Both the position numbers and the translations under genes were made by a program. A stretch of 25,887 nt of DNA from a virus (Duplodnaviria > Caudoviricetes), in IMG/VR virus record IMGVR_UViG_3300023172_000172, positions 1-25,887 of that record; one strand, written 5' to 3'. The notes below the pieces were generated by a model. That model was not told where the DNA came from. It saw nothing but the letters and a program-made list of their open reading frames with translations, and did not search any database. Below, in pieces: positions 1 through 25,146 of this stretch (position 1 is its first letter; every line of letters starts with the position of its first letter).

Positions 1-273
1 GCAATAAGCGATATAAGAATTAAGTTTTTCGACTTTGAAGTTTTCGAACATAAAAAATTAACAAAAAAAGATCTTGACAATCCTGAATTATTATGTGATA
101 ATACTCGCTATAATAATTCTAGAAAAATCGTATCAAATGGTAAAATTTACAACAGTAAAGCAGCATGGTCTCACGAACTCGAAGGCGAACACAATACGGT
201 CATTGATTGCGATGAATTCTGGGAAGAACTCTCAACACTAAAACTTTACAATGATAACAGAATCAGCGACTGA
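1..273 (+). CDS. Hypothetical phage protein, C-terminal part (5' truncated by the window edge)
   Basis: Frame 1 is open from base 1 to TGA at 271-273 (AISDIRIKFFDFEVFE...EFWEELSTLKLYNDNRISD*). It is missing from the ORF track because no start codon lies in the window. Confidence 0.7.
   Translation, partial: AISDIRIKFFDFEVFEHKKLTKKDLDNPELLCDNTRYNNSRKIVSNGKIYNSKAAWSHELEGEHNTVIDCDEFWEELSTLKLYNDNRISD
74..102 (+). promoter_or_regulatory. Putative sigma70-type promoter inside the upstream CDS, facing the annealing-protein gene
   Basis: TTGACA (74-79), a 17-nt spacer, then GATAAT (97-102), with TG at the extended -10 position (94-95) and an A-tract (UP-like) at 61-69. Confidence 0.55.
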
Positions 274-316
274 CAATTCAATAACAATCTCTTCACAAAT
301 CAACAGTAAGCATATT

Positions 317-1090
317 ATGGCCACAAAAAAAACTCTACCCAAAAACTATGCGCAAGGACCACTAAAATTTGCCCGAAATGAATATGGCCTGCTTAATGGA
401 GTTGATTATGATTTCAGTGAAGATGGATCAGTAAACTGGAGGTCTATGATAAAGGATGAACATCTATTCCCCAACAGGTCTTGGTTTGATCTAAGAAAAA
501 AAGATTTACCCAGAACTATTGACGGACTCAAAGATCATCAACTTCTTATCAAGCTTAGCGGAATTAAAGAACTAGCAAAACTAAGAGGTTTCTCAGACGT
601 ATCCTACGAAGTAGTTAAATGTCAAGAAGACCATGTTGCGGTGATCTGTAGAGTTACATTTTTACCAAACTACGAGACAGGAAATCAACCTGTAACATTT
701 CAAGACATGGCAAACGCCACTCTAAATAACACGAGTAGTTTTGCAACAAAATTTCTAGAAACTATTGCCTGCAATAGAGCATTTGTTAGGTGTGTAAGGA
801 ATTTCTTAAATGTACATATTGTCGGAGATGACGAAATAGATAAATCGAATCAAGGAAACGCAAATCAGGCTAATAGTAACCAAGCCTTACCGTCTATTAC
901 CCCAGAATCTATGATCGAGTCTTCAGCAAGGGAAAAGCTAAATTGTTCTAGCTTTGAAGAATTCAAGGTAGTATTAAGAGATTGGTGGAAAACAGGAAAA
1001 TATAAAAACGAAAAAGTTGTAGACTGGAATAGTTATTCCGATATTCCCCCGTCTCAGGCTCGAGTACTAATGAAGGTAATCAACTCATAG
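317..1090 (+). CDS. Putative single-strand annealing/recombination protein (Rad52/Sak/Red-beta superfamily fold)
   Basis: The core LLIKLSGIKELAKLRGF...VAVICRVTF...MANAT...FLETIACNRAFVRCVRNFLNVHIVGDDEI matches the SSAP helix pattern (A.(T/N)RA..R..R..LN.....EE/DE). A low-complexity N/Q linker and a small C-terminal domain follow. ATG 317 (MATKK) is preferred over ATG 251, which overlaps the previous ORF. Confidence 0.55.
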   Translation: MATKKTLPKNYAQGPLKFARNEYGLLNGVDYDFSEDGSVNWRSMIKDEHLFPNRSWFDLRKKDLPRTIDGLKDHQLLIKLSGIKELAKLRGFSDVSYEVVKCQEDHVAVICRVTFLPNYETGNQPVTFQDMANATLNNTSSFATKFLETIACNRAFVRCVRNFLNVHIVGDDEIDKSNQGNANQANSNQALPSITPESMIESSAREKLNCSSFEEFKVVLRDWWKTGKYKNEKVVDWNSYSDIPPSQARVLMKVINS

Positions 1091-8632: not shown

Positions 8633-11600
8633 TTATGCAGTTAAATCTGTTAATATTAAATCGGTTGGAGCTTCTGGAATCGCCATATCTGCCTGAGGAG
8701 GAATTGGAATCACAGGTCTTCTGACTATACTTTTTTTATCAACTGAATCGAATTTAGCTTGAACATATTCTAAACCAGTAACCTCATATTTATTTTCATC
8801 CATTTCTTTTACACTCATAGTTCTAAATAATTGCCCCTCAAGAATAGAAGAGCTTCCATCCACAGCTTTTTGAATAAAGAGTATATTCCCCCCAGTAACA
8901 GAGAACCCACTTGTTGACGCAGCTGATGAAGAATTAATTAACTCAAAAACTGATTTTGATATTTTAATCAACCTCCATTTTGGCGGAGTACTAGTCCATT
9001 TATTTCCACTGTAGGTATAGGAATTATTTATTGCGGAAGCGCCCGTTCCTGAAGCACCATTAATATATACAAATTGCCCATCTGGAATTTCTACATTACT
9101 AGATGAATCTAAAGTAATTCTAACAGATTGTACATTTTGTTTTGCGTCATTTGCGGAGACGACAGAATAAGAAGATATATTTATATTTTTAGAATCGGGA
9201 TGACTTTCTAATCTTTGATATGGATTTACTGTTGATTGGTTTGGTGGAGTAGAAGATGTCGACACCTTACCTTGCCTCGTAGTAACTTCTTCCTGAAGAG
9301 CAACATAATAACCAACTCCAGAAGCGACTTGTACAATAACATACTTTGCATTATTAATTGAGTATTTCTCGCCAACAGATTTCGATGTATCAGTGTCCCA
9401 AATAAATAATTCGACAAGAATATTAAAACTATCATAAAGCGGGCTGACCCATCCGTTAGCAGTAGATGAATTTTCATGAATTTTCGAAAAATACCAAAAT
9501 TGATCCTTTATGCCCTCTGCTGTATAAATCCAGCCCAGATCAGCATCATCACGACCATAAAACCAAATATTGTTGGTTAGATTATTAAGATAATCTTCGG
9601 AAAAATAAATCCACCCAAAGTTGATCACGTAGGTCCATGGACCCTTTGGTACTATATTACCCAACCAATAAGAATGTTTCCATCCACTACCATCACCATA
9701 ATCTAAAGTAACCCCAAAAACATCTTGTTCTGTCGCAGTTAAGCCAGAACCCGAACTTAAAGCCACAATGCCTTTTGCAGACCATGTAGATCCAATACTG
9801 ATTTGATCCAACGCCTCTTTGGTTCTTTGCTCGTCTTGAGGAAGAACATAATGCAGCCCTCCTTCGTTTCCAAGAATATCAAATCCATTATTATAGACTT
9901 CAACAGCTGACCCAGAAGAAGTCTCAGAGACCTGAAAAGTATGCTTTGTGACATTAATTATATAATATGCCCGCTCGTCATATTTTGAAGGGTTCAGTCC
10001 TCCAGGAAGAATGCCGTTTGAGTTAAATGCAACCCTATCGCCATTATCAAAATTATGATTAAAAGATACAAATAAATTTTGACCCAAGTCCACCTCGATG
10101 GGTATCTTTAATTGCAGATCCACTGCTCTTGATTTTTGTCCTTGCGGCCCTTTTTTTCCTTCATAGTCAGAATAATCAATTCGACAATTAAACCTTATAA
10201 TTTGAGGGGTAAAAACAGACTCAATTTCTGCGTCTTGATCCTTATCAGATTTCTCAAAGGGCGCCCTCAAAGATACATTCTCTTCTGTTTCATTAGACAT
10301 GCCCACACAAACCGCAAGCTCTACGCTTGAAACAAAAGGCTCTTTTGTTAGACTTTTATCTAATAATATATACGGATTATCTACCTCTATAACACCATCA
10401 CTTTGCAGGTTTCCGCTCCCATCGGTTATTGTTCTTGTATAATATTGTTTATCTTGAATATCTAAAACCCTTCCGCTTTTTAATTTCCCCGCTCTCGCTT
10501 CATCAGAAACTTCGAATATTGCCCCGGGAAATAAATAGGACGCTTCTGCACCCGCCTGAAACGAAACTGTTTCTATTTCTAACTGAGTGGTAAAAAGTAT
10601 CCACTTCGCTAAACGCCTGGCTTGGCTTTGAGAAGTGATACCAAATCCCATTGTTTCTTCTTCTTTATACCCAAATCTTTGTATTGCCTCAGCATCTTCT
10701 TCTACAATTACGTCTGGCTTGAAGTTATTGTCCTTATTATTATAACGAACCAAAGATGTTGTTACCTTCTGATTCTTACTCACGCCATTATAATTAAATC
10801 CTTCAATCCCTACATTTGAATTAGTAAACAATTGAACCGGATTCTTATATGAATCCTGTACAGCAACTATTTTTCCGCCGCTATAAGTACTAATTCCCCT
10901 AAAAATAGACGCGAAATTATTTATAATCTGAAGCGCTTCATTTCTATCTGTTAGATATAAATTAGCAGTGAATCTTGGCTCTACCAATGGATGATTCAAC
11001 TGTACGGCACACGCACCAACTGTGATATTTGAAGAATTTGTAGCGGATAAATTTTTAAAACTAGGGCCACTTACAGTAATTGTTTGATTTTCTGCATCAG
11101 AAGAAAGTATAACCCTTTCCTCAATTAATATCTCCCCCTCTCTGAATGCGGAGTCTTTTTTTGCGCGAATTCCGCCCAGTGTATTTGTAGATATAAAAAA
11201 TGCCATCTTTTTTCCAGCAAAAGATTGCTTGTCGCCAAACTCTTTTTTAAAATCAGGAATCTGTTCAGTTCTCGTAACATTAAGCGCTGAATCCAAGTAA
11301 TGCCCAGAAGAATCGATTTTTATTTGAAAACTCTCCTCCCCAGAATTTAATGTTTCAAAATTCCTAGGTAGGCCAGAGCTAGTCTCAAAAGGATAATCTG
11401 TCTCGACGAGTTGGTCGCAGTATTTTGCAATTTTATATAACTGCCATTTATCAATATTTTCTTCATTAAGTCCGAATTTACCAACCCCATATCTGGCATT
11501 ATGCAATAAGTCGTAATAAATCCAAGCAGGATTATCGCTCCAATATTTATCCTCATCACTTATTGAATGAACAGAAGCTAGAGCATCAGCCTGTCCTTTA

Positions 11601-13210
11601 AATAATCCATTCCAAGGACCATCATATTTTCTAGTAACTGGATCATAATTACTAGGAATAAGAATTTTTTTCATTTTTACATGATATGACCTCTCTGGAA
11701 TTTGACTAAAATTTTTACTATCAAATTTTATTTTACATATTGCACTATGAGGATATAATAAATCTTCAATTACTGACTCTGTAACAGAAATAAAATTTAG
11801 AACCTTAGTTTTTGCAATCCCCCCGAGAGTGCCACCTCGAGCGGTGGAGTCCAATTCATTACTCAATTTAACCAATTTAAATGTAACTCCTTTTGACTTT
11901 ATCCTTGGCACAATATAGTCAACAACAATATCAAATTCATATTCATCAGTAGCGATCCCTCTAACAATAAAAGAAGTTTCTCCATTTTTCATCAAGCCGG
12001 TGCCTGGGCTATCAGAATTATACGCAGGAATATCAACTTCTGCCCCTTGACTCCGAGTCTTTATCTTGCAGCCGGATGAGCTAGATAATATATTATGCTC
12101 TTCATCATCCTTGAGTATATTTACTGCGAAAGATATTGATGTCGGACCATTACTACCATCATCATTTTGAATTTGTAACGCAACGCCCAAATTTAATGTC
12201 ACCCTTGACACATTCTCATTAGCCACAAAATGAGTTAGTATTTTTGCATTATTTTTTATTGCGTCATTAAAATCTGCTCGACTCTCTTTCTTTTCAGGGT
12301 TATTTACATATGGCCCAGCTCCATAAAATTTTGTTCCATATTCAAGAGTCATGGTTGTTTCGGCAGATAAAACTCTAGACTCTTCTTCTTTACCGAGCTG
12401 TATTTCGGGCAACTCTCCATTTTCATTTAGTATAAAATTTAACGAACCTTCCCCAGAGCCATCACTGTCGGTATTTTTTATCTGTACATTATTCAAGAAT
12501 ATGCCCTCTCTTATATCTCCACCAGATATTGGTCCGCCATTTATATTTACGAAACCTTCTATTGGTCCCTCTGATAACAATTCCATGTATTCGATGTCTG
12601 AATAAGATTCAAGAGTATTAGCATTTTCCTTGACAGATCTATAAGTTTTTTTATTTTGAGCTATATTAGTTGAACCTATTTTTAATCTTCCGTAACCTAA
12701 CGGAACAGCAACCCCTTGATTTGTTCTATTTTCTGAGCCCCTCAGCAAAAAAGATTTTGTTGTTGTGGGCTCACCTCTTTTTGGCGGCTTAAAGAGAGAC
12801 TTCATTATTGCACCAACAACAAAAGAAATTGCAACCGCAGCAACTATCTTACCTAATAATTTCAATCCGGTAATTTTTCCTGCTGCATCCAGTACAAAAA
12901 ATAGTGGCATGAGGGGACCCGAGCCTTGAACACGCGGACATATATGAATTTCTTTTTTATCTTGTATTAAATCAATTTTTTCTTTATTGATTGAGTGTTC
13001 GACAAGGTCTTCTTTTGAATTGATCTTTTTAGGATCTTTTGTAAAAATATAGTATTCTACCCCTTTTTTTTCTGTATCAATTAAATACTCAAGAAACCCA
13101 CTATTATTAGACTCCAAGGCATGAAAAGCTTCGGCAGGAGTGCGCACGGCAAGGTTCCACTTTTCGCCAAAGCGTTTACCTAATTTACCATGTAAATATA
13201 CCGTCTTCAC
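8633..13210 (-). CDS. Fusion of gpI-like ubiquitin-fold tail assembly domain and gpJ-like tail tip/host-specificity protein
   Basis: The N-terminus VYLHGKLGKRFG...AVRTPAEAFHAL...IHICPRVQGSG, a hydrophobic stretch and QGVAVPLGYGRLKIGS are gpI-like. gpJ motifs follow: LLSEGPIEG, LYPHSA, FSQIPERSY, IPSNYDPVTRKYDGPWNGLFK, WSDNPAWIYYDLL...RYG, IDKWQLYKIAKYCDQLV, EPRFTAN, GITSQSQARRLAKWIL, SGRV, YEVTGLEY. GTG start with AAGGA upstream. Confidence 0.9.
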   Translation of the reverse strand: MKTVYLHGKLGKRFGEKWNLAVRTPAEAFHALESNNSGFLEYLIDTEKKGVEYYIFTKDPKKINSKEDLVEHSINKEKIDLIQDKKEIHICPRVQGSGPLMPLFFVLDAAGKITGLKLLGKIVAAVAISFVVGAIMKSLFKPPKRGEPTTTKSFLLRGSENRTNQGVAVPLGYGRLKIGSTNIAQNKKTYRSVKENANTLESYSDIEYMELLSEGPIEGFVNINGGPISGGDIREGIFLNNVQIKNTDSDGSGEGSLNFILNENGELPEIQLGKEEESRVLSAETTMTLEYGTKFYGAGPYVNNPEKKESRADFNDAIKNNAKILTHFVANENVSRVTLNLGVALQIQNDDGSNGPTSISFAVNILKDDEEHNILSSSSGCKIKTRSQGAEVDIPAYNSDSPGTGLMKNGETSFIVRGIATDEYEFDIVVDYIVPRIKSKGVTFKLVKLSNELDSTARGGTLGGIAKTKVLNFISVTESVIEDLLYPHSAICKIKFDSKNFSQIPERSYHVKMKKILIPSNYDPVTRKYDGPWNGLFKGQADALASVHSISDEDKYWSDNPAWIYYDLLHNARYGVGKFGLNEENIDKWQLYKIAKYCDQLVETDYPFETSSGLPRNFETLNSGEESFQIKIDSSGHYLDSALNVTRTEQIPDFKKEFGDKQSFAGKKMAFFISTNTLGGIRAKKDSAFREGEILIEERVILSSDAENQTITVSGPSFKNLSATNSSNITVGACAVQLNHPLVEPRFTANLYLTDRNEALQIINNFASIFRGISTYSGGKIVAVQDSYKNPVQLFTNSNVGIEGFNYNGVSKNQKVTTSLVRYNNKDNNFKPDVIVEEDAEAIQRFGYKEEETMGFGITSQSQARRLAKWILFTTQLEIETVSFQAGAEASYLFPGAIFEVSDEARAGKLKSGRVLDIQDKQYYTRTITDGSGNLQSDGVIEVDNPYILLDKSLTKEPFVSSVELAVCVGMSNETEENVSLRAPFEKSDKDQDAEIESVFTPQIIRFNCRIDYSDYEGKKGPQGQKSRAVDLQLKIPIEVDLGQNLFVSFNHNFDNGDRVAFNSNGILPGGLNPSKYDERAYYIINVTKHTFQVSETSSGSAVEVYNNGFDILGNEGGLHYVLPQDEQRTKEALDQISIGSTWSAKGIVALSSGSGLTATEQDVFGVTLDYGDGSGWKHSYWLGNIVPKGPWTYVINFGWIYFSEDYLNNLTNNIWFYGRDDADLGWIYTAEGIKDQFWYFSKIHENSSTANGWVSPLYDSFNILVELFIWDTDTSKSVGEKYSINNAKYVIVQVASGVGYYVALQEEVTTRQGKVSTSSTPPNQSTVNPYQRLESHPDSKNINISSYSVVSANDAKQNVQSVRITLDSSSNVEIPDGQFVYINGASGTGASAINNSYTYSGNKWTSTPPKWRLIKISKSVFELINSSSAASTSGFSVTGGNILFIQKAVDGSSSILEGQLFRTMSVKEMDENKYEVTGLEYVQAKFDSVDKKSIVRRPVIPIPPQADMAIPEAPTDLILTDLTA

Positions 13211-13236
13211 TTCCTTATACCTAGATATCTATACAC
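13211..13236 (-). promoter_or_regulatory. Putative late promoter/RBS element upstream of the gpI-J gene
   Basis: The minus strand reads GTGTATA-GATATCT-AGGTATAAGG-AA-GTG. The same GTGTATA and AGG(A/T)ATAAGG elements precede the TMP gene. Confidence 0.4.
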
Positions 13237-13600
13237 CTACATTCTCATATACAAAAAAACTATCTTCACTTAAGCTATATATTAAAAAAGGTATACATAA
13301 TTCATCCGAAAACAACTTGTCCATTTCAGAAGGAAAAGGTCCGCTGTTTACATGAGAATGATAAACGCATAATACTTTATTTTCTATTAAAATTTTATTA
13401 TCTATTAGAAAATGAACATGCTTTTTCTCACTCAAGTTTTTGCAAGGTAAAAACTCAACAACATCAGATTCTATTATCAACCCACAAGATTCTTCTTCTT
13501 TTAAAGAATGAGCATAATCTTTAATTTTTAAAAGTAGACTTTTATTTAAAAAACTATACCGCTTCAGGTCTATGTTTATCTGTTCCAGGAAAACCTCCAA
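13229..13600 (-). CDS. JAB/JAMM (Mov34/MPN) metalloprotease, gpK-like tail assembly protein lacking the NlpC/P60 domain
   Basis: EESCGLI...PCKNLS...F.ID...YHSH...PSEMD gives an intact E-HxH-S-D JAMM motif. It sits between the L and I/J genes as in lambda. The start codon is uncertain (TTG inside gpL). Confidence 0.85.
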   Translation of the reverse strand: MEVFLEQINIDLKRYSFLNKSLLLKIKDYAHSLKEEESCGLIIESDVVEFLPCKNLSEKKHVHFLIDNKILIENKVLCVYHSHVNSGPFPSEMDKLFSDELCIPFLIYSLSEDSFFVYENVGV

Positions 13601-18723: not shown

Positions 18724-21700
18724 TTACTCGCTTAGTAATCCGCCAGGTCTTTGTTCTTCAATTATAACCGCAACTACTTGCGCCTTGACTTTTTCTGCCA
18801 ATTGATTTTCTCTGGATTGATTCTCTGATGCATCTTTTGGATTTTGCCCTGAATTTTGACCGCTAGAATCTTTAGACTGTCCGCCAGATCGATCAACGTT
18901 AATTGATATATTAATATTATTTGTATTACCCGAAGAAGTTGTTGATTCGGATTGTTCTTTGAGCGGGGTAACCGCGCCACCTTGGTTAAATTTTCCTAAA
19001 TTTATTGAATCAAGCAAGGGTTTACCTAATTGACGAGCGCTACTTGCACGAATAACATATTCTCCCTCGCTGAGCATTGCCGGAATCTGGTCGATACCAG
19101 ATTTTCCAGAAATGTATCCACCGCTAGCATATTTATGAATTGGGCCGCCCCTATATCTGCCACTCAAGAATTTGCTAAAATACGAAGAAGCGTCCAAATT
19201 TTCAGCGGCCAATAAATGAGCATTTTTCGAGAAAAAAGAATCTTGAGAAACATCAATTCTTGCAGCTTTATTCATTCCAGACGCCCCTACGGAGTCAGCA
19301 ATCATTGCTTTTTTCGACATAAAATCACCAAACTTGTCAGCCCCAGCGGCTAATCCAAAACTAAGTGCTGTGCCCAAAATCATTTGCATTAAAGATCTCT
19401 TTTTGGCTTTTTTCTCGGCGGCCTTTCTCATTCTTTCCTGAATAATCCCGCGAGTATATTGAGCATCTTCTTGAAGTCCGACATTTCCAGCTTGGCCACT
19501 ATAGAAAAATCCAGACATTGCTTCCGATTGATATCTTCTTCCTGTAGCATATCCTTCGGCTCCTCCAAAATTTGCGGCAAGCGCGGAACCAGGCTTTCCT
19601 CCGTTTGAGTAACCAGGAATTTTTCCTCCGGCATTTAAAGAATGCATGAATCCACCACCGTATTTCTTTACTGCGTTTCGACTCATGACATATTCTCCAT
19701 TAGAAACCATTGCAGGAACTTGACCTCCTCGAGAAAATCCTATAGCGCCTACAATATCCCCCGCGGCTTTTTGAAGCATTGCACTTTGTATTGCCTGAAG
19801 AAAGTTTATTGCGATATTTCTCAAAACATCTCCCATGTCTTCAGCCCCATTTATACCAGCCTGCATAGCCTCTGCGAGACCATCTCTTAATTTCAATGGT
19901 AATTGTTCGCCTAATTGATAATCAATGGCGTCAGTTTGTTCTCTAACTTTTTTAAATCCATCTGCAATCCCACCGCCAAAGGTTTCGTGAGCTCTGCGAT
20001 TAGCGATTCTTTGTTTTTCTAAATTTATTAAGGTTTGTACGTTTGATATTTGTTTTTCGTATTCTGCAGTTATATTCGCTGATTGTTGTGCTAGTTCGTC
20101 CCGCCGCTCCTTATCTTTTCCTGTTGTGCCAACAATCTTTGCGTACTCTTCTGCTATTTTATTTTGTTTCTCAAGCAGCTCCTCGTTTAGGGCTTGTATT
20201 TTTAATTCTGCTTGAATATCTTTTTCCATTAATTGAAAATCTTCTCTTTCTCTGGCTGTTTGATACCCAGGGCCCTGAGCAGTCAATCTCTGCGCCGAAC
20301 CCAGCTCGTAATCTAACTCTCTCATTCTTCGGGCAGATCGAGCTGCTTCTGCACCCATTCGATGGTCTCTTTGCAATTGATTGAGTGCATCAGCCCTTTG
20401 CGCAAGAGTTAGACTTATGCCGTCTTCTGCTTTCTGTGTCGCTTCGGCATTTTCCTTTTGTTTTATTGCAAGATCTATAAGATTTTGTCTTTTTTCCCTT
20501 TCCTGATCTAATAACCTATTTAGAATTTTTTGTATTTCACTATTATCCTTTGCCTCCGTAATCATTTCATCAAGCGTATCTATTAACTTTTGCGTGTCCA
20601 TTTCTAACACTTTATTAGAGACATTCTGAAGAGCTCCTTCCCCTTCTTCCCCAAACTTTGTTTTAAACAATCTTTGAACCTCTGGATTTTCTTTTATTTG
20701 ACTTAATAACCCGAGTCTAAGTCCTTCGTCCGCAGAACCCACATTTAAGGCATATTTTTTATTTATTTCTGCTGCTGCAATTTGACCTCGCTTTGTAGCC
20801 TTTTGGGCTTCAGTCATGGATTCCGGAGAAGTTTTAAGTTGTTTTTTTAAGTTATCTATTTTTTCATCTTCGAGTTTAGCTATTTCCAATTGATTCATTG
20901 CGGCGCGTTGCTGTGCTATTTGCATTACTTTTGCCATATCCAGCTCAACGATATAGCCTTTTCTTTTTTCCGTAAGGGCATTTACTTCTTGCTCTGCTAG
21001 TTTTAATATATCTTTGTATGCTTTTGCGATTGCCGTAGGGGTTGCTTTATCGATTTGTGTTTTTAGTTCGGCCGGAGAAAAGTAAGCTTCCGTACCCGCT
21101 TCGATTTTAGCTCCAGCTTCAGTGAAAGTGTCCGACATCGCGGGTGCATAAATCTTTTTGTCTTGAGGTAACATATCCAATGCATCTCTTAAAGCCTGAG
21201 GCCTAAGTTTTGTACCCATTTGAGCTAAGATTTGATCTTCAATTCTTTTTTTGATATCCTTTTCTGGTCTTACTCTATATCCGCCGCCAACCTCTTTCAA
21301 AATATGTTTCTTCAAGCCCGCTTGGCCAACAATACTACCTCCTACGTTACTTTCTTTCAATAATTGCTGCAGGCGCTCAGCTGTATATTGAGCTGCTTCA
21401 GAGCGCTTTTTTGGATCTCCTCCCATATACTTGTCGCTCTCCAATATTCCCGACTGTTTAATCAAGTCGCCTACATTGATTCCTGACTGCTCGAGTAGTC
21501 TACTTTTAAATTCTGCTCCTGCAGCAGTGTTTGGTTTTAAATCCAAACCAAATCCGTCTCTAGTTGTTAGCCTATTAAAATCCTCTATACCTTCAAAAAC
21601 CAAGGATCTTTGTTGCAGTCGGCCACTTTGACCCTTAAGTGGGTCAAAGGCAATCTGCCTATTTTGATCAAAATACCCCGAATTTTTAAAAGCCTGCGCC

Positions 21701-24700
21701 GTTGATTGGGCAAATTTAGATCCCACTTGAGCAGATTCTTCTCTAGCAGCCTTTGCAGATTCTTTTAGCGCTTTTGTATTTTCTTCGGTTGCGGTTTGCC
21801 AACCCATAAAAGCTCCAGCTAGTCCGCCAACAACGGTTCCTATTGGGCCGAGAAATGATCCCATCATGGCTCCAGTTGAAGCTTGAGTGAATGCGCTCCC
21901 AGCAGCATACATAGTTTGATTACCTCCTTGGGCACCCACGCCACCCGCATACTGTTGTATCATTCCACCGATCATTGGTAATCCAATCATCGCCATTGTA
22001 CCCATGCCCGAAAATCTTCCCCGCGCTGCAGCACCGCGTGCTTGACTTGTAGCCACAACTTCTTTTTGCTTTGCTTCAATTAGCTTTTGTTGTGTGTCAT
22101 TTAAAGCTAGCTGCAACTGAGTACCCCTCCTTGCCGCGGAGCGGTTAAGCCTTCCCTGGGCGTTAGCCTCGACCATTATTCTATTATTTGTTTCTATTAC
22201 CCTTTGAAGCTTTTTTTCTCGATCCGTATTGATTTTTACTTGTTTTGCTGCCTCGTCTCTTGCTTCTATATATTTATCTCGCTGACCTTGATCCGCTCGA
22301 AAACCCGCCATCCAATCCTTGATAGCGTAATTTGGCACATATCCATTTGCACCAAATACATCGCGCAAGCCGTTCGGTTCGTCTTTTGTATTGGTTACGC
22401 CGAGGCCGAGTGGATTACCTCTACTCATTAATGCATTATGAGAACCAACTCTAATTTGCGAAACAGGAACTCCAGCTGCTTTTTCGCGGCCTATTGCATC
22501 GCTTAGTGGATCGGCAAAGTTGGGAATATAACCATCAGCCATTAAAACAGCCTGATTACCTTTTCCCACGCCAAGTCTAATAGCATTTCTTCCGGTCAAC
22601 TGCTGAGCGGTCTTTAGTTTGGGGGCGCTGCCTCTCGCGCCTCTATAAATTATCTCCTTGGCAATTTTAGCAGACATAGACGCCTGAAGCTCCCTGCCGT
22701 CAGATACTTTATAATCTGCTCGAGGAGCCATGGGTCCATATAATTTTTTTAACTCAGGCGTAGCCATTCTTACATCAAAATCGCCGCCCATATAATCTCG
22801 TTCAGTAGATTCGGTTTTTAGTCTTCTAGATAGAGCTTCTTCAAAAACTGCTCCATACAATCCACTGATTGCTCCCTTAGCTCCACTCCTACCCCCTTTA
22901 GGTCCCAGAAATTCTTTTACAATTTGCGCTCCTGCAGCGTCCGGAATTTTCGCTATATCATTACCTAGATTTAATTGATTAGCAACTTTTACAGTCTGAC
23001 TACCAATAACGTCACCAAGCTCGGCTAAGGCTTGAGGGACGACTCGGCCTTCACTATCTTTTGCGGACTTAGTATACCCGCCTCGTTTTACCCCCAACAT
23101 ATTAAACAAAATATTTTTATTTATCTTTTGGCCAAACACAGGCTTACCACCTTTAGCGGAAGGAGCAACACCTTTTCCTCCACCTGATAATTTTTTACCA
23201 AACCCCTCAAAAGGAATAAGCATTGTTGCTATATGTCGAGCGTCGATTGTTTCAGGATTAAAATTAGGAATATAACCACTTCCCGCATACGGATCAAATC
23301 CATGAACACTTCCAAATGCTTTTTGATAATTCTTGCCCGCCTTGCTAGACAGCGGAGGCATAATTGCAGGCTGAGTAAATCCTGCAAAATTCTTGACTTT
23401 TTCCGAGCTATTATATATTACCGAGCCTTCACCAGGCATATTCATTGATCGAATATTTCCTGCGGCATATCCTCCCTTTGCTGCTTGCGCTCGTTCGGGA
23501 TGTGCAAAATTTGGTATATGACCTGTTGCTCGACCACGCCTTGGAGTCAGAGAGGCTCCGTATCCCTTTGAATAAAGAGTGCTTGCTGTTCTTTTTGCAA
23601 TAGAATCAAGCATTTGAGCTTCGACCACCTGAGCTTGCAATAAACTTAAAATTATTTTTTCTTTTTCTGTTCGAGAAATATCAGTTCTTAACATTTCTTT
23701 ACTTAGTGCAGAATTTTGTCCAAACAAATTAACCAAAGATGTTTGAATCGCTTTTTGCTTTTGAGCCTCGCTAGTTACGCCTATAAGAGATGTTAAACTT
23801 TCTTTTGCGAATTGAGCTGCTTTTAAAAACAATTTTCCAAAAACCACAGTAAGTACAACCAAGCCTGGCCCAGTTATAATATTACCCAAACCCTTTAAAA
23901 ATCCGTTTGCAAACTTACCCCCAGCACTTTCTCCATCTCCAAGCATTGCGCTTGCACCTTCTGCAATAGATTTTACTGTATTTAGTATTTTTTCCATTCC
24001 AGGGGCAAGCATAATTTCTCCAATTTGCGCAGAAACATCTTTTAATGCTAACCCTGTTTCAGTTGCCATTGCGGACATTGTACCCCTTAGTTGCTCATTT
24101 TTTTGAATGGCTTCATTTGTTGCGCTAGAAGAAATTTGTGTGGCGTTTGCAAGTATACCATTCTGTTTTGCGGCGTCACTCAGAACGGCCTTTAAAATAT
24201 TGATTTGGAAAACTCCACCAACTGTTTGCGCGATTTGAGCCTGTTGCGCAGCAGATAAGCCGTCGAATGAATTTGCGAGATCAGTTAAAATTCTTTTAGC
24301 GCCTAAAGTATTTCCCTCCAAGTCTCTTACTGCAATACCTAAATTTTCTAATTGATTCAAAGTATCGGTACGACCTATTCTTGTAAAAATTGTCTTGAAT
24401 GAGTTACCAATAACCTTTCCGCCTCGAGCAGTTTGTTGTTGGGCCGCAGTCACCAAACCTATCAATTCATCAATACTTACCCCCGCACTTTTTGCGGCTT
24501 GACCAGTTCGAGCAATAGCATCAGCGAAGTCTTCTGCGCTTACCGCAAATTGAACGTCAACTGCGGCAAATTTACTAACCAATTGAGTAGTATCTTTAAT
24601 TTGGTTACCGTATGTATTCATGGCGGCCGTTAAAGCTTTAACTGCCTCAGCCGAATCCATGCCGGTCAATCGAGTAAGAATCAATGCGTCACGAGTTCTT

Positions 24701-25146
24701 TTTAAAGACTGCTCTACAGATAAACCTTGACGAGCATATTCTGTTGCGGCTTGTGCGGCAACATTAAAAGCCGCCCCAGTTTCTTTTGCAACATTAAACA
24801 GGCCATCGCTAAACTTGTCCAAATTTTGTGCGCTTAAATTCATGACAACATTAATGTCAGCCATCGCTTTTTCAACTTCTATCGCATTTCTAGCAACCGC
24901 TTTGAATGCATCTGCGATACCATTAATTATTGCCATACTTGCACCGAACGCAATAATACGAGCATTCGCAGCTTCCATAGATTTGCTGAATTCGTCAGCA
25001 CTGCGCTTCATGTTACCCAAAGGCTGAGTAGCGCCCTTGTCGTCAACCGTAATTTTTATTGGTTGTCGCCTAATTCTGTTTACAGCAGCCTGTACAGCCG
25101 CCTCAAGCGGTTGGGTATTACCTGATACGTTAAGATTTATAGCCAT
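18724..25146 (-). CDS. Tail tape measure protein (TP901-family core) with internal motif-delimited modules
   Basis: A long Ala/Gln/Lys-rich helical protein with a TP901 core (EYARQG, ALILTRLTG, FAAVD..FAVSAEDFADAI.RTG..AK.AGVS.DELIGLVTA....T.RGG..IGNSFKTIF.RI), a glycine-zipper hydrophobic segment, coiled coils and C-terminal [FY].xGG...PAM.S.GEYV motifs. It lies upstream of the tail tip genes. Confidence 0.95.
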   Translation of the reverse strand: MAINLNVSGNTQPLEAAVQAAVNRIRRQPIKITVDDKGATQPLGNMKRSADEFSKSMEAANARIIAFGASMAIINGIADAFKAVARNAIEVEKAMADINVVMNLSAQNLDKFSDGLFNVAKETGAAFNVAAQAATEYARQGLSVEQSLKRTRDALILTRLTGMDSAEAVKALTAAMNTYGNQIKDTTQLVSKFAAVDVQFAVSAEDFADAIARTGQAAKSAGVSIDELIGLVTAAQQQTARGGKVIGNSFKTIFTRIGRTDTLNQLENLGIAVRDLEGNTLGAKRILTDLANSFDGLSAAQQAQIAQTVGGVFQINILKAVLSDAAKQNGILANATQISSSATNEAIQKNEQLRGTMSAMATETGLALKDVSAQIGEIMLAPGMEKILNTVKSIAEGASAMLGDGESAGGKFANGFLKGLGNIITGPGLVVLTVVFGKLFLKAAQFAKESLTSLIGVTSEAQKQKAIQTSLVNLFGQNSALSKEMLRTDISRTEKEKIILSLLQAQVVEAQMLDSIAKRTASTLYSKGYGASLTPRRGRATGHIPNFAHPERAQAAKGGYAAGNIRSMNMPGEGSVIYNSSEKVKNFAGFTQPAIMPPLSSKAGKNYQKAFGSVHGFDPYAGSGYIPNFNPETIDARHIATMLIPFEGFGKKLSGGGKGVAPSAKGGKPVFGQKINKNILFNMLGVKRGGYTKSAKDSEGRVVPQALAELGDVIGSQTVKVANQLNLGNDIAKIPDAAGAQIVKEFLGPKGGRSGAKGAISGLYGAVFEEALSRRLKTESTERDYMGGDFDVRMATPELKKLYGPMAPRADYKVSDGRELQASMSAKIAKEIIYRGARGSAPKLKTAQQLTGRNAIRLGVGKGNQAVLMADGYIPNFADPLSDAIGREKAAGVPVSQIRVGSHNALMSRGNPLGLGVTNTKDEPNGLRDVFGANGYVPNYAIKDWMAGFRADQGQRDKYIEARDEAAKQVKINTDREKKLQRVIETNNRIMVEANAQGRLNRSAARRGTQLQLALNDTQQKLIEAKQKEVVATSQARGAAARGRFSGMGTMAMIGLPMIGGMIQQYAGGVGAQGGNQTMYAAGSAFTQASTGAMMGSFLGPIGTVVGGLAGAFMGWQTATEENTKALKESAKAAREESAQVGSKFAQSTAQAFKNSGYFDQNRQIAFDPLKGQSGRLQQRSLVFEGIEDFNRLTTRDGFGLDLKPNTAAGAEFKSRLLEQSGINVGDLIKQSGILESDKYMGGDPKKRSEAAQYTAERLQQLLKESNVGGSIVGQAGLKKHILKEVGGGYRVRPEKDIKKRIEDQILAQMGTKLRPQALRDALDMLPQDKKIYAPAMSDTFTEAGAKIEAGTEAYFSPAELKTQIDKATPTAIAKAYKDILKLAEQEVNALTEKRKGYIVELDMAKVMQIAQQRAAMNQLEIAKLEDEKIDNLKKQLKTSPESMTEAQKATKRGQIAAAEINKKYALNVGSADEGLRLGLLSQIKENPEVQRLFKTKFGEEGEGALQNVSNKVLEMDTQKLIDTLDEMITEAKDNSEIQKILNRLLDQEREKRQNLIDLAIKQKENAEATQKAEDGISLTLAQRADALNQLQRDHRMGAEAARSARRMRELDYELGSAQRLTAQGPGYQTAREREDFQLMEKDIQAELKIQALNEELLEKQNKIAEEYAKIVGTTGKDKERRDELAQQSANITAEYEKQISNVQTLINLEKQRIANRRAHETFGGGIADGFKKVREQTDAIDYQLGEQLPLKLRDGLAEAMQAGINGAEDMGDVLRNIAINFLQAIQSAMLQKAAGDIVGAIGFSRGGQVPAMVSNGEYVMSRNAVKKYGGGFMHSLNAGGKIPGYSNGGKPGSALAANFGGAEGYATGRRYQSEAMSGFFYSGQAGNVGLQEDAQYTRGIIQERMRKAAEKKAKKRSLMQMILGTALSFGLAAGADKFGDFMSKKAMIADSVGASGMNKAARIDVSQDSFFSKNAHLLAAENLDASSYFSKFLSGRYRGGPIHKYASGGYISGKSGIDQIPAMLSEGEYVIRASSARQLGKPLLDSINLGKFNQGGAVTPLKEQSESTTSSGNTNNINISINVDRSGGQSKDSSGQNSGQNPKDASENQSRENQLAEKVKAQVVAVIIEEQRPGGLLSE
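22327..23523 (-). repeat. Four dispersed protein-level repeats G[HY][IV]PN[FY] within the TMP
   Basis: GHIPNF 23506-23523, GYIPNF 23260-23277, GYIPNF 22516-22533 and GYVPNY 22327-22344. The codons differ, so the conservation is at protein level. Confidence 0.9.

Follow-up and report, generated by a model that had tools for sequence, protein, structure and literature searches.

The tape measure protein (TMP) of mycobacteriophage TM4 reportedly carries an embedded peptidoglycan hydrolase motif that aids infection; TMPs of this type are said to hold cell-wall enzymes, with no repeated fences and with no cassette swapping shown. In the TMPs of phages T5 (pb2) and lambda (gpH), a single cut near the C-terminus separates an enzymatic, muralytic piece, according to the portions of PMC10038345 and PMC12617516 considered here. 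Polyvalent proteins combine unrelated enzyme domains in one polypeptide, and the main text of PMC5512222 proposes their co-delivery with DNA and proteolytic separation. In the examined text of PMC3482391, polymorphic and MuF toxins consist of a constant carrier and a hypervariable, recombined enzyme domain, with restriction-endonuclease-like cargo among them, and MuF toxins are delivered by the phage particle. Furthermore, Tme (PMC11126660) and Sle1 (PMC13277306), as far as the consulted sections of both papers go, belong to bacterial contractile systems and have a TMP-like carrier, hydrophobic segments and one C-terminal nuclease or variable functional domain (EndA-type in Tme).

The window analysed here is a 25,887-nt stretch of a caudoviral record (IMGVR_UViG_3300023172_000172). 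It encodes a TMP of 2140 aa with a nuclease-like domain placed between copies of a short peptide motif. As in TM4-type TMPs, the putative enzyme lies inside the tape measure, but within repeated fences. The T5 cut site, F-V-P-R/A-E-G-G, resembles the motif; in contrast to the one cut of pb2 and gpH, however, the present system has four or more internal motifs and polymorphic nuclease-like cargo. The family shares with polyvalent proteins the presence of several unrelated enzyme domains, the window TMP itself having one cargo, as well as an overlapping repertoire of metallopeptidase-, GNAT- and nuclease-like domains; judging from TMP biology, delivery with the invading DNA would be polyvalent-like, too. 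It differs in that the carrier is a TMP (the word 'tape' occurs 0 times in the main text of PMC5512222) and that the domains are fenced by one short peptide; an MPTase domain was absent from the window TMP in the Pfam scan. With polymorphic toxins the system shares a constant carrier on which a variable enzyme domain is exchanged by recombination, and a restriction-endonuclease-like cargo. Delivery by the particle, known from MuF toxins, is proposed here as well, by the tail instead of the head, and 'tape' occurs 0 times in the examined text of PMC3482391, too. The toxin domain of polymorphic toxins is C-terminal and accompanied by an adjacent immunity gene and spare cassettes, whereas here the slot domain is internal (aa 630-871 of 2140), and neither of the two was found in the related loci and records scanned. 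Unlike Tme and Sle1, the window protein is the genuine TMP of a siphophage, in which several modules lie internally between motifs. The system works like polyvalent proteins, polymorphic toxins and Tme/Sle1, but falls outside the polymorphic toxins by position, immunity and spare cassettes. No description of the motif or the cassette was found in the literature covered, beyond which most subscription papers lay, nor in the consulted parts of PMC7824862 and PMC9503650; supplements of surveys could list such architectures.

The tape measure gene and its surroundings

A lambda-like tail tip operon begins with the TMP gene (18724..25146, (-)). Its TP901-type core (PF10145; aa 120-311; 24214..24789, (-)) was recognised by Pfam with E=1.1e-29 and 104 bits, the cut-off being 33, and the PHROG matches of the ORF were TMP families, too. 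Behind it, Pfam and PHROG placed lambda M-, L-, K/JAB- and I+J-like genes in this order. By its core and its position ahead of the tail tip genes, the protein is a TP901-family TMP. The lambda K-like gene (13229..13600, (-); PF14464, E=4e-8) encodes a JAB domain alone, whose HxH...S..D motif looks intact, and is a candidate maturation protease. A single 1525-aa ORF (8633-13210) fuses the homologs of lambda I and J, and a 279-aa ORF at 251-1090 (+), convergent with the tail operon, had no Pfam or PHROG match.

The window represents the tail region of a large siphophage; the record is 18% complete, while complete relative genomes measure 184-205 kb. Salt-marsh sequencing runs contain the record in full, and the phage is uncultured and coastal. 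It should be added that the TMP of relative L024/P0048 stops at about 1504 aa and continues in a separate ORF, owing to a frameshift, a split gene or an assembly error. L056, L184, L187, L291 and others lack a real same-strand gene behind the TMP, which suggests a rearranged tail operon in that subclade.

Motif copies, fixed modules and the family

As stated in the first-pass annotation of this DNA, the TMP contains four copies of the peptide G[HY][IV]PN[FY]: motif 1, GHIPNF (aa 542-547; 23506..23523, (-)); motif 2, GYIPNF (aa 624-629; 23260..23277, (-)); motif 3, GYIPNF (aa 872-877; 22516..22533, (-)); and motif 4, GYVPNY (aa 935-940; 22327..22344, (-)). The spacers of 76, 242 and 57 aa were given exactly. 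From composition, 4.5e-5 copies per protein were expected by chance. The remaining five frames of the window lacked the motif, as did the other ORFs of related loci (0/1382), and in all three complete relative genomes it was confined to the TMP gene. The consensus is x-[AS]-x-G-[FYHL]-[IV]-P-N-[FY]-A, the residue behind the motif being mostly small and most commonly Ala. At the DNA level, 383 copies were written in 185 distinct strings with every synonymous codon in use, and this variation indicates that the motif is selected as protein. A DNA recombination site was rejected on the same ground, and with it the DNA-level form of the recombination joint considered earlier. Scanned with a loose version of the motif, 205 full-length relatives had from 0 to 14 copies, four in 126 of them, so that the count does vary among homologues, as had been anticipated.

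All three inter-motif segments had been taken for swappable cargo. Among 126 distinct close relatives, for whose selection only layout and length were used, the median identity with the window was 85% for the core, 83% for the 76-aa segment, 89% for the 57-aa segment and 24% for the middle one. Conserved outer segments around a divergent middle define two fixed modules and one variable slot; the claim thus held for the 242-aa segment, which is exchanged, and not for the outer two, which are fixed at 83-89% identity. Fixed module 1 (23278..23505, (-)) had neither Pfam nor PHROG match, and neither it nor fixed module 2 (22345..22515, (-)) belongs to a known family. Both co-occur in 190 of the 205 full-length relatives.

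Searches with module 1 retrieved 341 viral loci and 512 cluster representatives at 50% identity, none of them from cultured phages; the module was also present on nine MAG contigs, which are probably binned phage DNA and were left out of any host assignment. The longest TMP of the family has 5198 aa. In P0046, P0062, P0121, L220 and L226 module 1 is duplicated around a low-complexity repeat region of about 500 aa, and the distant TMPs P0123, P0124, P0125 and P0146 have a second cassette near the C-terminus with module 1- and module 2-like domains.

Exchange of the slot at the motifs

Exchange was analysed in 93 loci retained by layout and signature, among which 84 pairs had core identity of at least 95%. 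Slots were less than 40% identical in 51 of these pairs, intermediate in 5 and shared in 28; conversely, 34 pairs with cores below 88% had slots at least 70% identical. At the left edge, identity across the 51 pairs was 43% at position +6 of motif 2, 22% at +7 and at most 18% further in, and at the right edge it was back at -2/0 of motif 3. Motifs 2 and 3 are thus the left and right borders of a segment swapped between related phages, in agreement with the exchange at motifs proposed before. A reciprocal two-by-two arrangement was found as well, with flanks common to the window and L003, and slots common to the window and L011 on the one hand and to L003 and L007 on the other. DNA of the window and L003 was 96% identical up to nucleotide 1889 of the gene, where the alignment broke off to resume at 2601. 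Contigs from X15, an independent seawater run, resembled the flanks at 97-98% and diverged from the window at 22533 and 23258. Of the 58 supported splits of the core, 50 were contradicted by the slot tree and 14 by the flank tree. Crossovers would occur beside the motif because homology ends there.

The slot alone differed in 17 of the 84 same-core pairs, and 41 of the 84 differed directly behind the last motif, too. Motif 4 is a second exchange border: behind it, the TMP (19990-22326; aa 940-1720) equals the slot in variability, and blocks of it are swapped among nearly identical phages. Motif count and slot both vary, in contrast to the invariance in number and sequence that was to speak against a cassette. 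We consider it very likely that the TMP contains a genuine swappable cassette.

The motif as a putative cleavage site

Two conserved C-terminal modules of the window TMP, module 1 (FSRGG..GEYV..AGGKIPGYSNGG; 19594..19737, (-)) and module 2 (YASGG..GEYV..FNQGG; 18973..19131, (-)), share homology with one another and with lambda gpH 750-774. The peptides that fence them, [FY]-[ASN]-x-G-G, are relatives of the motif, its closest relative lying in C-terminal module 1; a profile made from the cassette motifs alone ranked peptides at aa 1837 and 2006, in these C-terminal modules, next in the window TMP. The idea that the fixed modules are diverged GE[YF]V modules received no support (hhalign probabilities below 3%), and fixed modules 1 and 2 were not homologous to gpH 750-774.

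In the parts of the two papers considered, TMP cleavage is demonstrated for T5 and lambda only, with the T5 cut mapped after R1127 of pb2 (PMC10038345) and the lambda site unmapped (PMC12617516). The pb2 sequence at the R1127/A1128 cut reads S-F-V-P-R/A-E-G-G. When the motif profile was run on pb2, the mapped cut was the best of about 1208 windows, of which some ten overlap the site, in six of six settings, although the score was weak and was reached by 20-75% of shuffles. The match weakly suggests a cut after the Asn of the motif. Overall, we judge the processing signal proposed for the motif, that is, a predicted cleavage site, to have a slightly better than even chance of being correct.

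Were the cargo to stay uncut, the motif would be a structural signal: its partner could be the tail tube, the chaperone of tail assembly or the two fixed modules, or it could delimit the units that unfold during threading. The enzyme would then remain tethered to the membrane-inserted TMP beside the entering DNA. Related peptides in the C-terminal modules and in gpH point this way, as the motif may then be a general TMP element, and the mostly small residue behind the motif and the joint occurrence of the fixed modules in 190 of 205 relatives are consistent with it. It accommodates less readily that every added domain brings its own motif, with up to 14 copies in a polyprotein-like row, and that the T5 cut site is the top match in pb2. 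We regard this explanation as rather unlikely and prefer cleavage.

The slot domain and other cargo

Nucleases of the PD-(D/E)xK superfamily have an active site with conserved E ... D ... (D/E)xK in this order and an alpha-beta-beta-beta-alpha-beta core fold. The same order of residues was found in the slot, a basic, alpha/beta, nuclease-like domain of 242 aa (aa 630-871; 22534..23259, (-)) with the PD-(D/E)xK-like pattern G765, E769, D791, D811-x-K813 and K827 (22666..22854, (-)). G765, E769, D791, K813 and K827 were invariant in 144 of 144 distinct slots, with either D or E at 811, and the 251 slot cores fell into 38 clusters at 50% identity. Slot core or signature was present in 271 of 296 distinct cassettes, shuffles predicting 10. 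Median dN/dS was 0.22 (60 of 64 pairs with usable dS), hence the slot is under purifying selection.

The structural model of the slot, built from 53 sequences (a single-sequence model reached only pLDDT 36), had pLDDT 84.8 and pTM 0.81 and was globular, alpha/beta, with six helices after residue 70; the segment is therefore non-coiled-coil, and its earlier description as non-helical was wrong. The E lies in a long helix and D-Y-K at a strand end with a helix next, an extra helix being inserted after D791. The fold search suggested beforehand returned no enzyme, since nothing in PDB or BFVD matched the model. The slot profile found designed repeats only among PDB sequences and scored 0.6% against Mrr_cat, and when 53 slot members were compared with Pfam and PHROG, the outcome was scattered noise and no Pfam match. 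Atlas neighbours of the window allele included Tox-REase families at 0.82, which is a lead only, and another allele had none; a Tox-REase-7 search of the own record was silent everywhere, as were its controls. The retained nuclease-like residue set makes an enzyme likely: we consider the cargo probably enzymatic on sequence grounds, and lean, with less assurance, towards a divergent nuclease of PD-(D/E)xK type.

The slot could instead be a non-nuclease binding domain of new fold, for nucleic acid or a host protein, whose variation would serve to escape or mislead defences that sense TMPs, SNIPE for instance, or to suit different host envelope partners. SNIPE associates with TMPs according to the part of 10.1101/2025.11.03.685801 considered, which agrees with such a role, as do the net basic charge of the slot and the missing fold and profile matches; yet a binding domain sits poorly with E, D, D/E and K kept in metal-dependent active-site order through 38 clusters at 50% identity, while true nucleases (SNase) occupy neighbouring slots, and we find it improbable beside a nuclease.

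Across the family, 1018 distinct inter-motif segments comprised 280 matches to module 1, 202 to module 2 and 282 to the slot family. The remaining 256 formed about 83 clusters, some of them compound since motif variants were missed, and 95% were net basic. The E-D-(D/E)xK signature was found in 24 of 130 unrelated cargo segments longer than 150 aa, as compared with 2 in shuffles. A Pfam scan of 30 of about 100 long TMPs yielded, above the cut-off and entirely between two motifs, SNase in three and DUF7178 in one, so that the unrelated domains expected between the motifs of homologous TMPs do exist. Below curated cut-offs were GNAT (best E=0.0025), P-loop (E=0.009), PGDYG (E=3e-5) and metalloprotease (HExxH, E=0.006) matches, HExxH being tagged in two small cargo clusters only. 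An ADP-ribosyltransferase-like cargo perceived by eye in L313 was dropped, as Pfam, PHROG and PDB lent no support and the regular expression missed it.

A second compact cargo family was observed in L132:858-1556, L316:8589-9290, P0198 (714-925) and P0203 (753-993). Its pattern, E...VDF...PIExK, is cleaner than that of the slot family; the slot core compared with it at 20%, a figure biased by the choice of rows by motif.

Topology, proposed delivery and self-protection

At aa 423-441 (23824..23880, (-); KD19 2.03) a hydrophobic segment precedes the cassette and is predicted to span the membrane; a hydrophobic, glycine-rich stretch at aa 1045-1114 (21805..22014, (-)) closes the cassette region. 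Of 189 relatives, 181 had a hydrophobic segment ahead of the cassette, 122 had one behind it and 5 had one within it. The loop between hydrophobic segments of the TP901-1 TMP was predicted to be cytoplasmic (PMC5099701), and gpH* of lambda forms a trans-envelope channel, as reported in the part of PMC12617516 considered. From the flanking segments and the TP901-1 precedent we infer extended storage of the cassette and a final position in the cytoplasm.

The following course of events is conceivable. Inside the tail, the cassette would be threaded in unfolded form and make up part of the ruler, some 58 of roughly 310 nm if each residue spans 0.145 nm. After ejection, the hydrophobic stretches at aa 423-441 and 1045-1114 would place it on the cytoplasmic side. 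A protease, either the candidate JAB tail protein or a host enzyme, may cut at P-N/F in the register taken from the T5 pb2 site. The freed domain may then attack nucleic acid of the host or a competitor, or a defence component, within the first minutes, and recombination in the conserved flanks would shuffle slot alleles under host pressure. To this chain as a whole, with a motif-fenced, swapped, nuclease-like slot ejected with the TMP, predicted to be cut out and delivered to the cytoplasm, we assign somewhat less than an even chance.

The modules might otherwise be excised during tail assembly and act in the producing cell, in late breakdown of host DNA or exclusion of co-infecting phages, the virion retaining helical ruler pieces. 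Family TMPs of up to 5198 aa, which would mean very long tails if nothing were removed, fit this, and in T5 and lambda the TMP is indeed cut during tail morphogenesis; pb2C and gpHC stay in the virion, however (both points from the consulted portions of PMC10038345 and PMC12617516). Moreover, the placement of the cassette between hydrophobic segments is conserved, and a free gene would be a simpler means to the same end. Excision for use in the producing cell appears very unlikely compared with cytoplasmic delivery.

Inteins and homing elements are recognised by empty alleles and by C/S...N-C/S/T splice junctions. That the slot is a selfish in-frame homing endonuclease, with fixed modules like intein halves and inter-allele cutting driving the swaps, is the least probable explanation of all: homing into TMP genes is frequent and tail operons contain PD-(D/E)xK homing genes (10.1101/2023.03.23.533998), the N-module/nuclease/C-module layout is intein-like and the exchange borders are sharp, but 0 of 300 cassettes were empty (smallest gap 168 aa), Cys was absent from 48 of 48 copies of either module, Ala is commonest behind the motif, an RNA-library contig (which may be DNA) spans the cassette without a joint, and the same fences are used by non-nuclease cargo.

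As to protection from the putatively delivered domain, no immunity gene adjoining the TMP was found in the 74 scorable of 93 loci; a conserved 293-aa tail gene followed the TMP in 46 of the 74, and large tail genes or no same-strand gene in the others. The slot was single-copy, with one match in each of three records, one of them complete, and a word-limited search found no free-standing slot homolog of 130-594 aa among 8000 candidates. In the relative genome G002, no methyltransferase was present among 101 ATG-started ORFs of 170-1500 aa outside nt 39001-50000. With no immunity gene and a single-copy slot that swaps alone, protection would have to be allele-independent, for example by keeping the domain unfolded or chaperoned until release.

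DUF1501, DUF1549 and DUF1553 proteins are typical of Planctomycetes and Verrucomicrobia. All three are encoded by G002, which is a hint only at a host in one of these groups. The same genome (L346-L354) also encodes many glycosyltransferases, a subtilase, ClpB, Pol III alpha and UvdE.

Implications

In its broadest form, which we advance only tentatively, the TMP of this large aquatic siphophage clade would be a protease-processed polyprotein, with the peptide as a universal cut-and-load signal, cargo freed in the cytoplasm before the genome, and the same peptide family at the maturation cut of T5 and lambda. If so, phage effectors would have a third route in addition to MuF toxins and to proteins packaged in the head, and its default payload would be a new nuclease family. 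The findings touch on two open questions, namely how counter-defence enzymes of non-contractile phages enter before expression and what cuts TMPs. The family offers a precise peptide signal and natural cargo swaps in the hundreds, their borders sharp to the residue, and its catalogue of basic cargo domains provides candidate early host-takeover or anti-defence enzymes.
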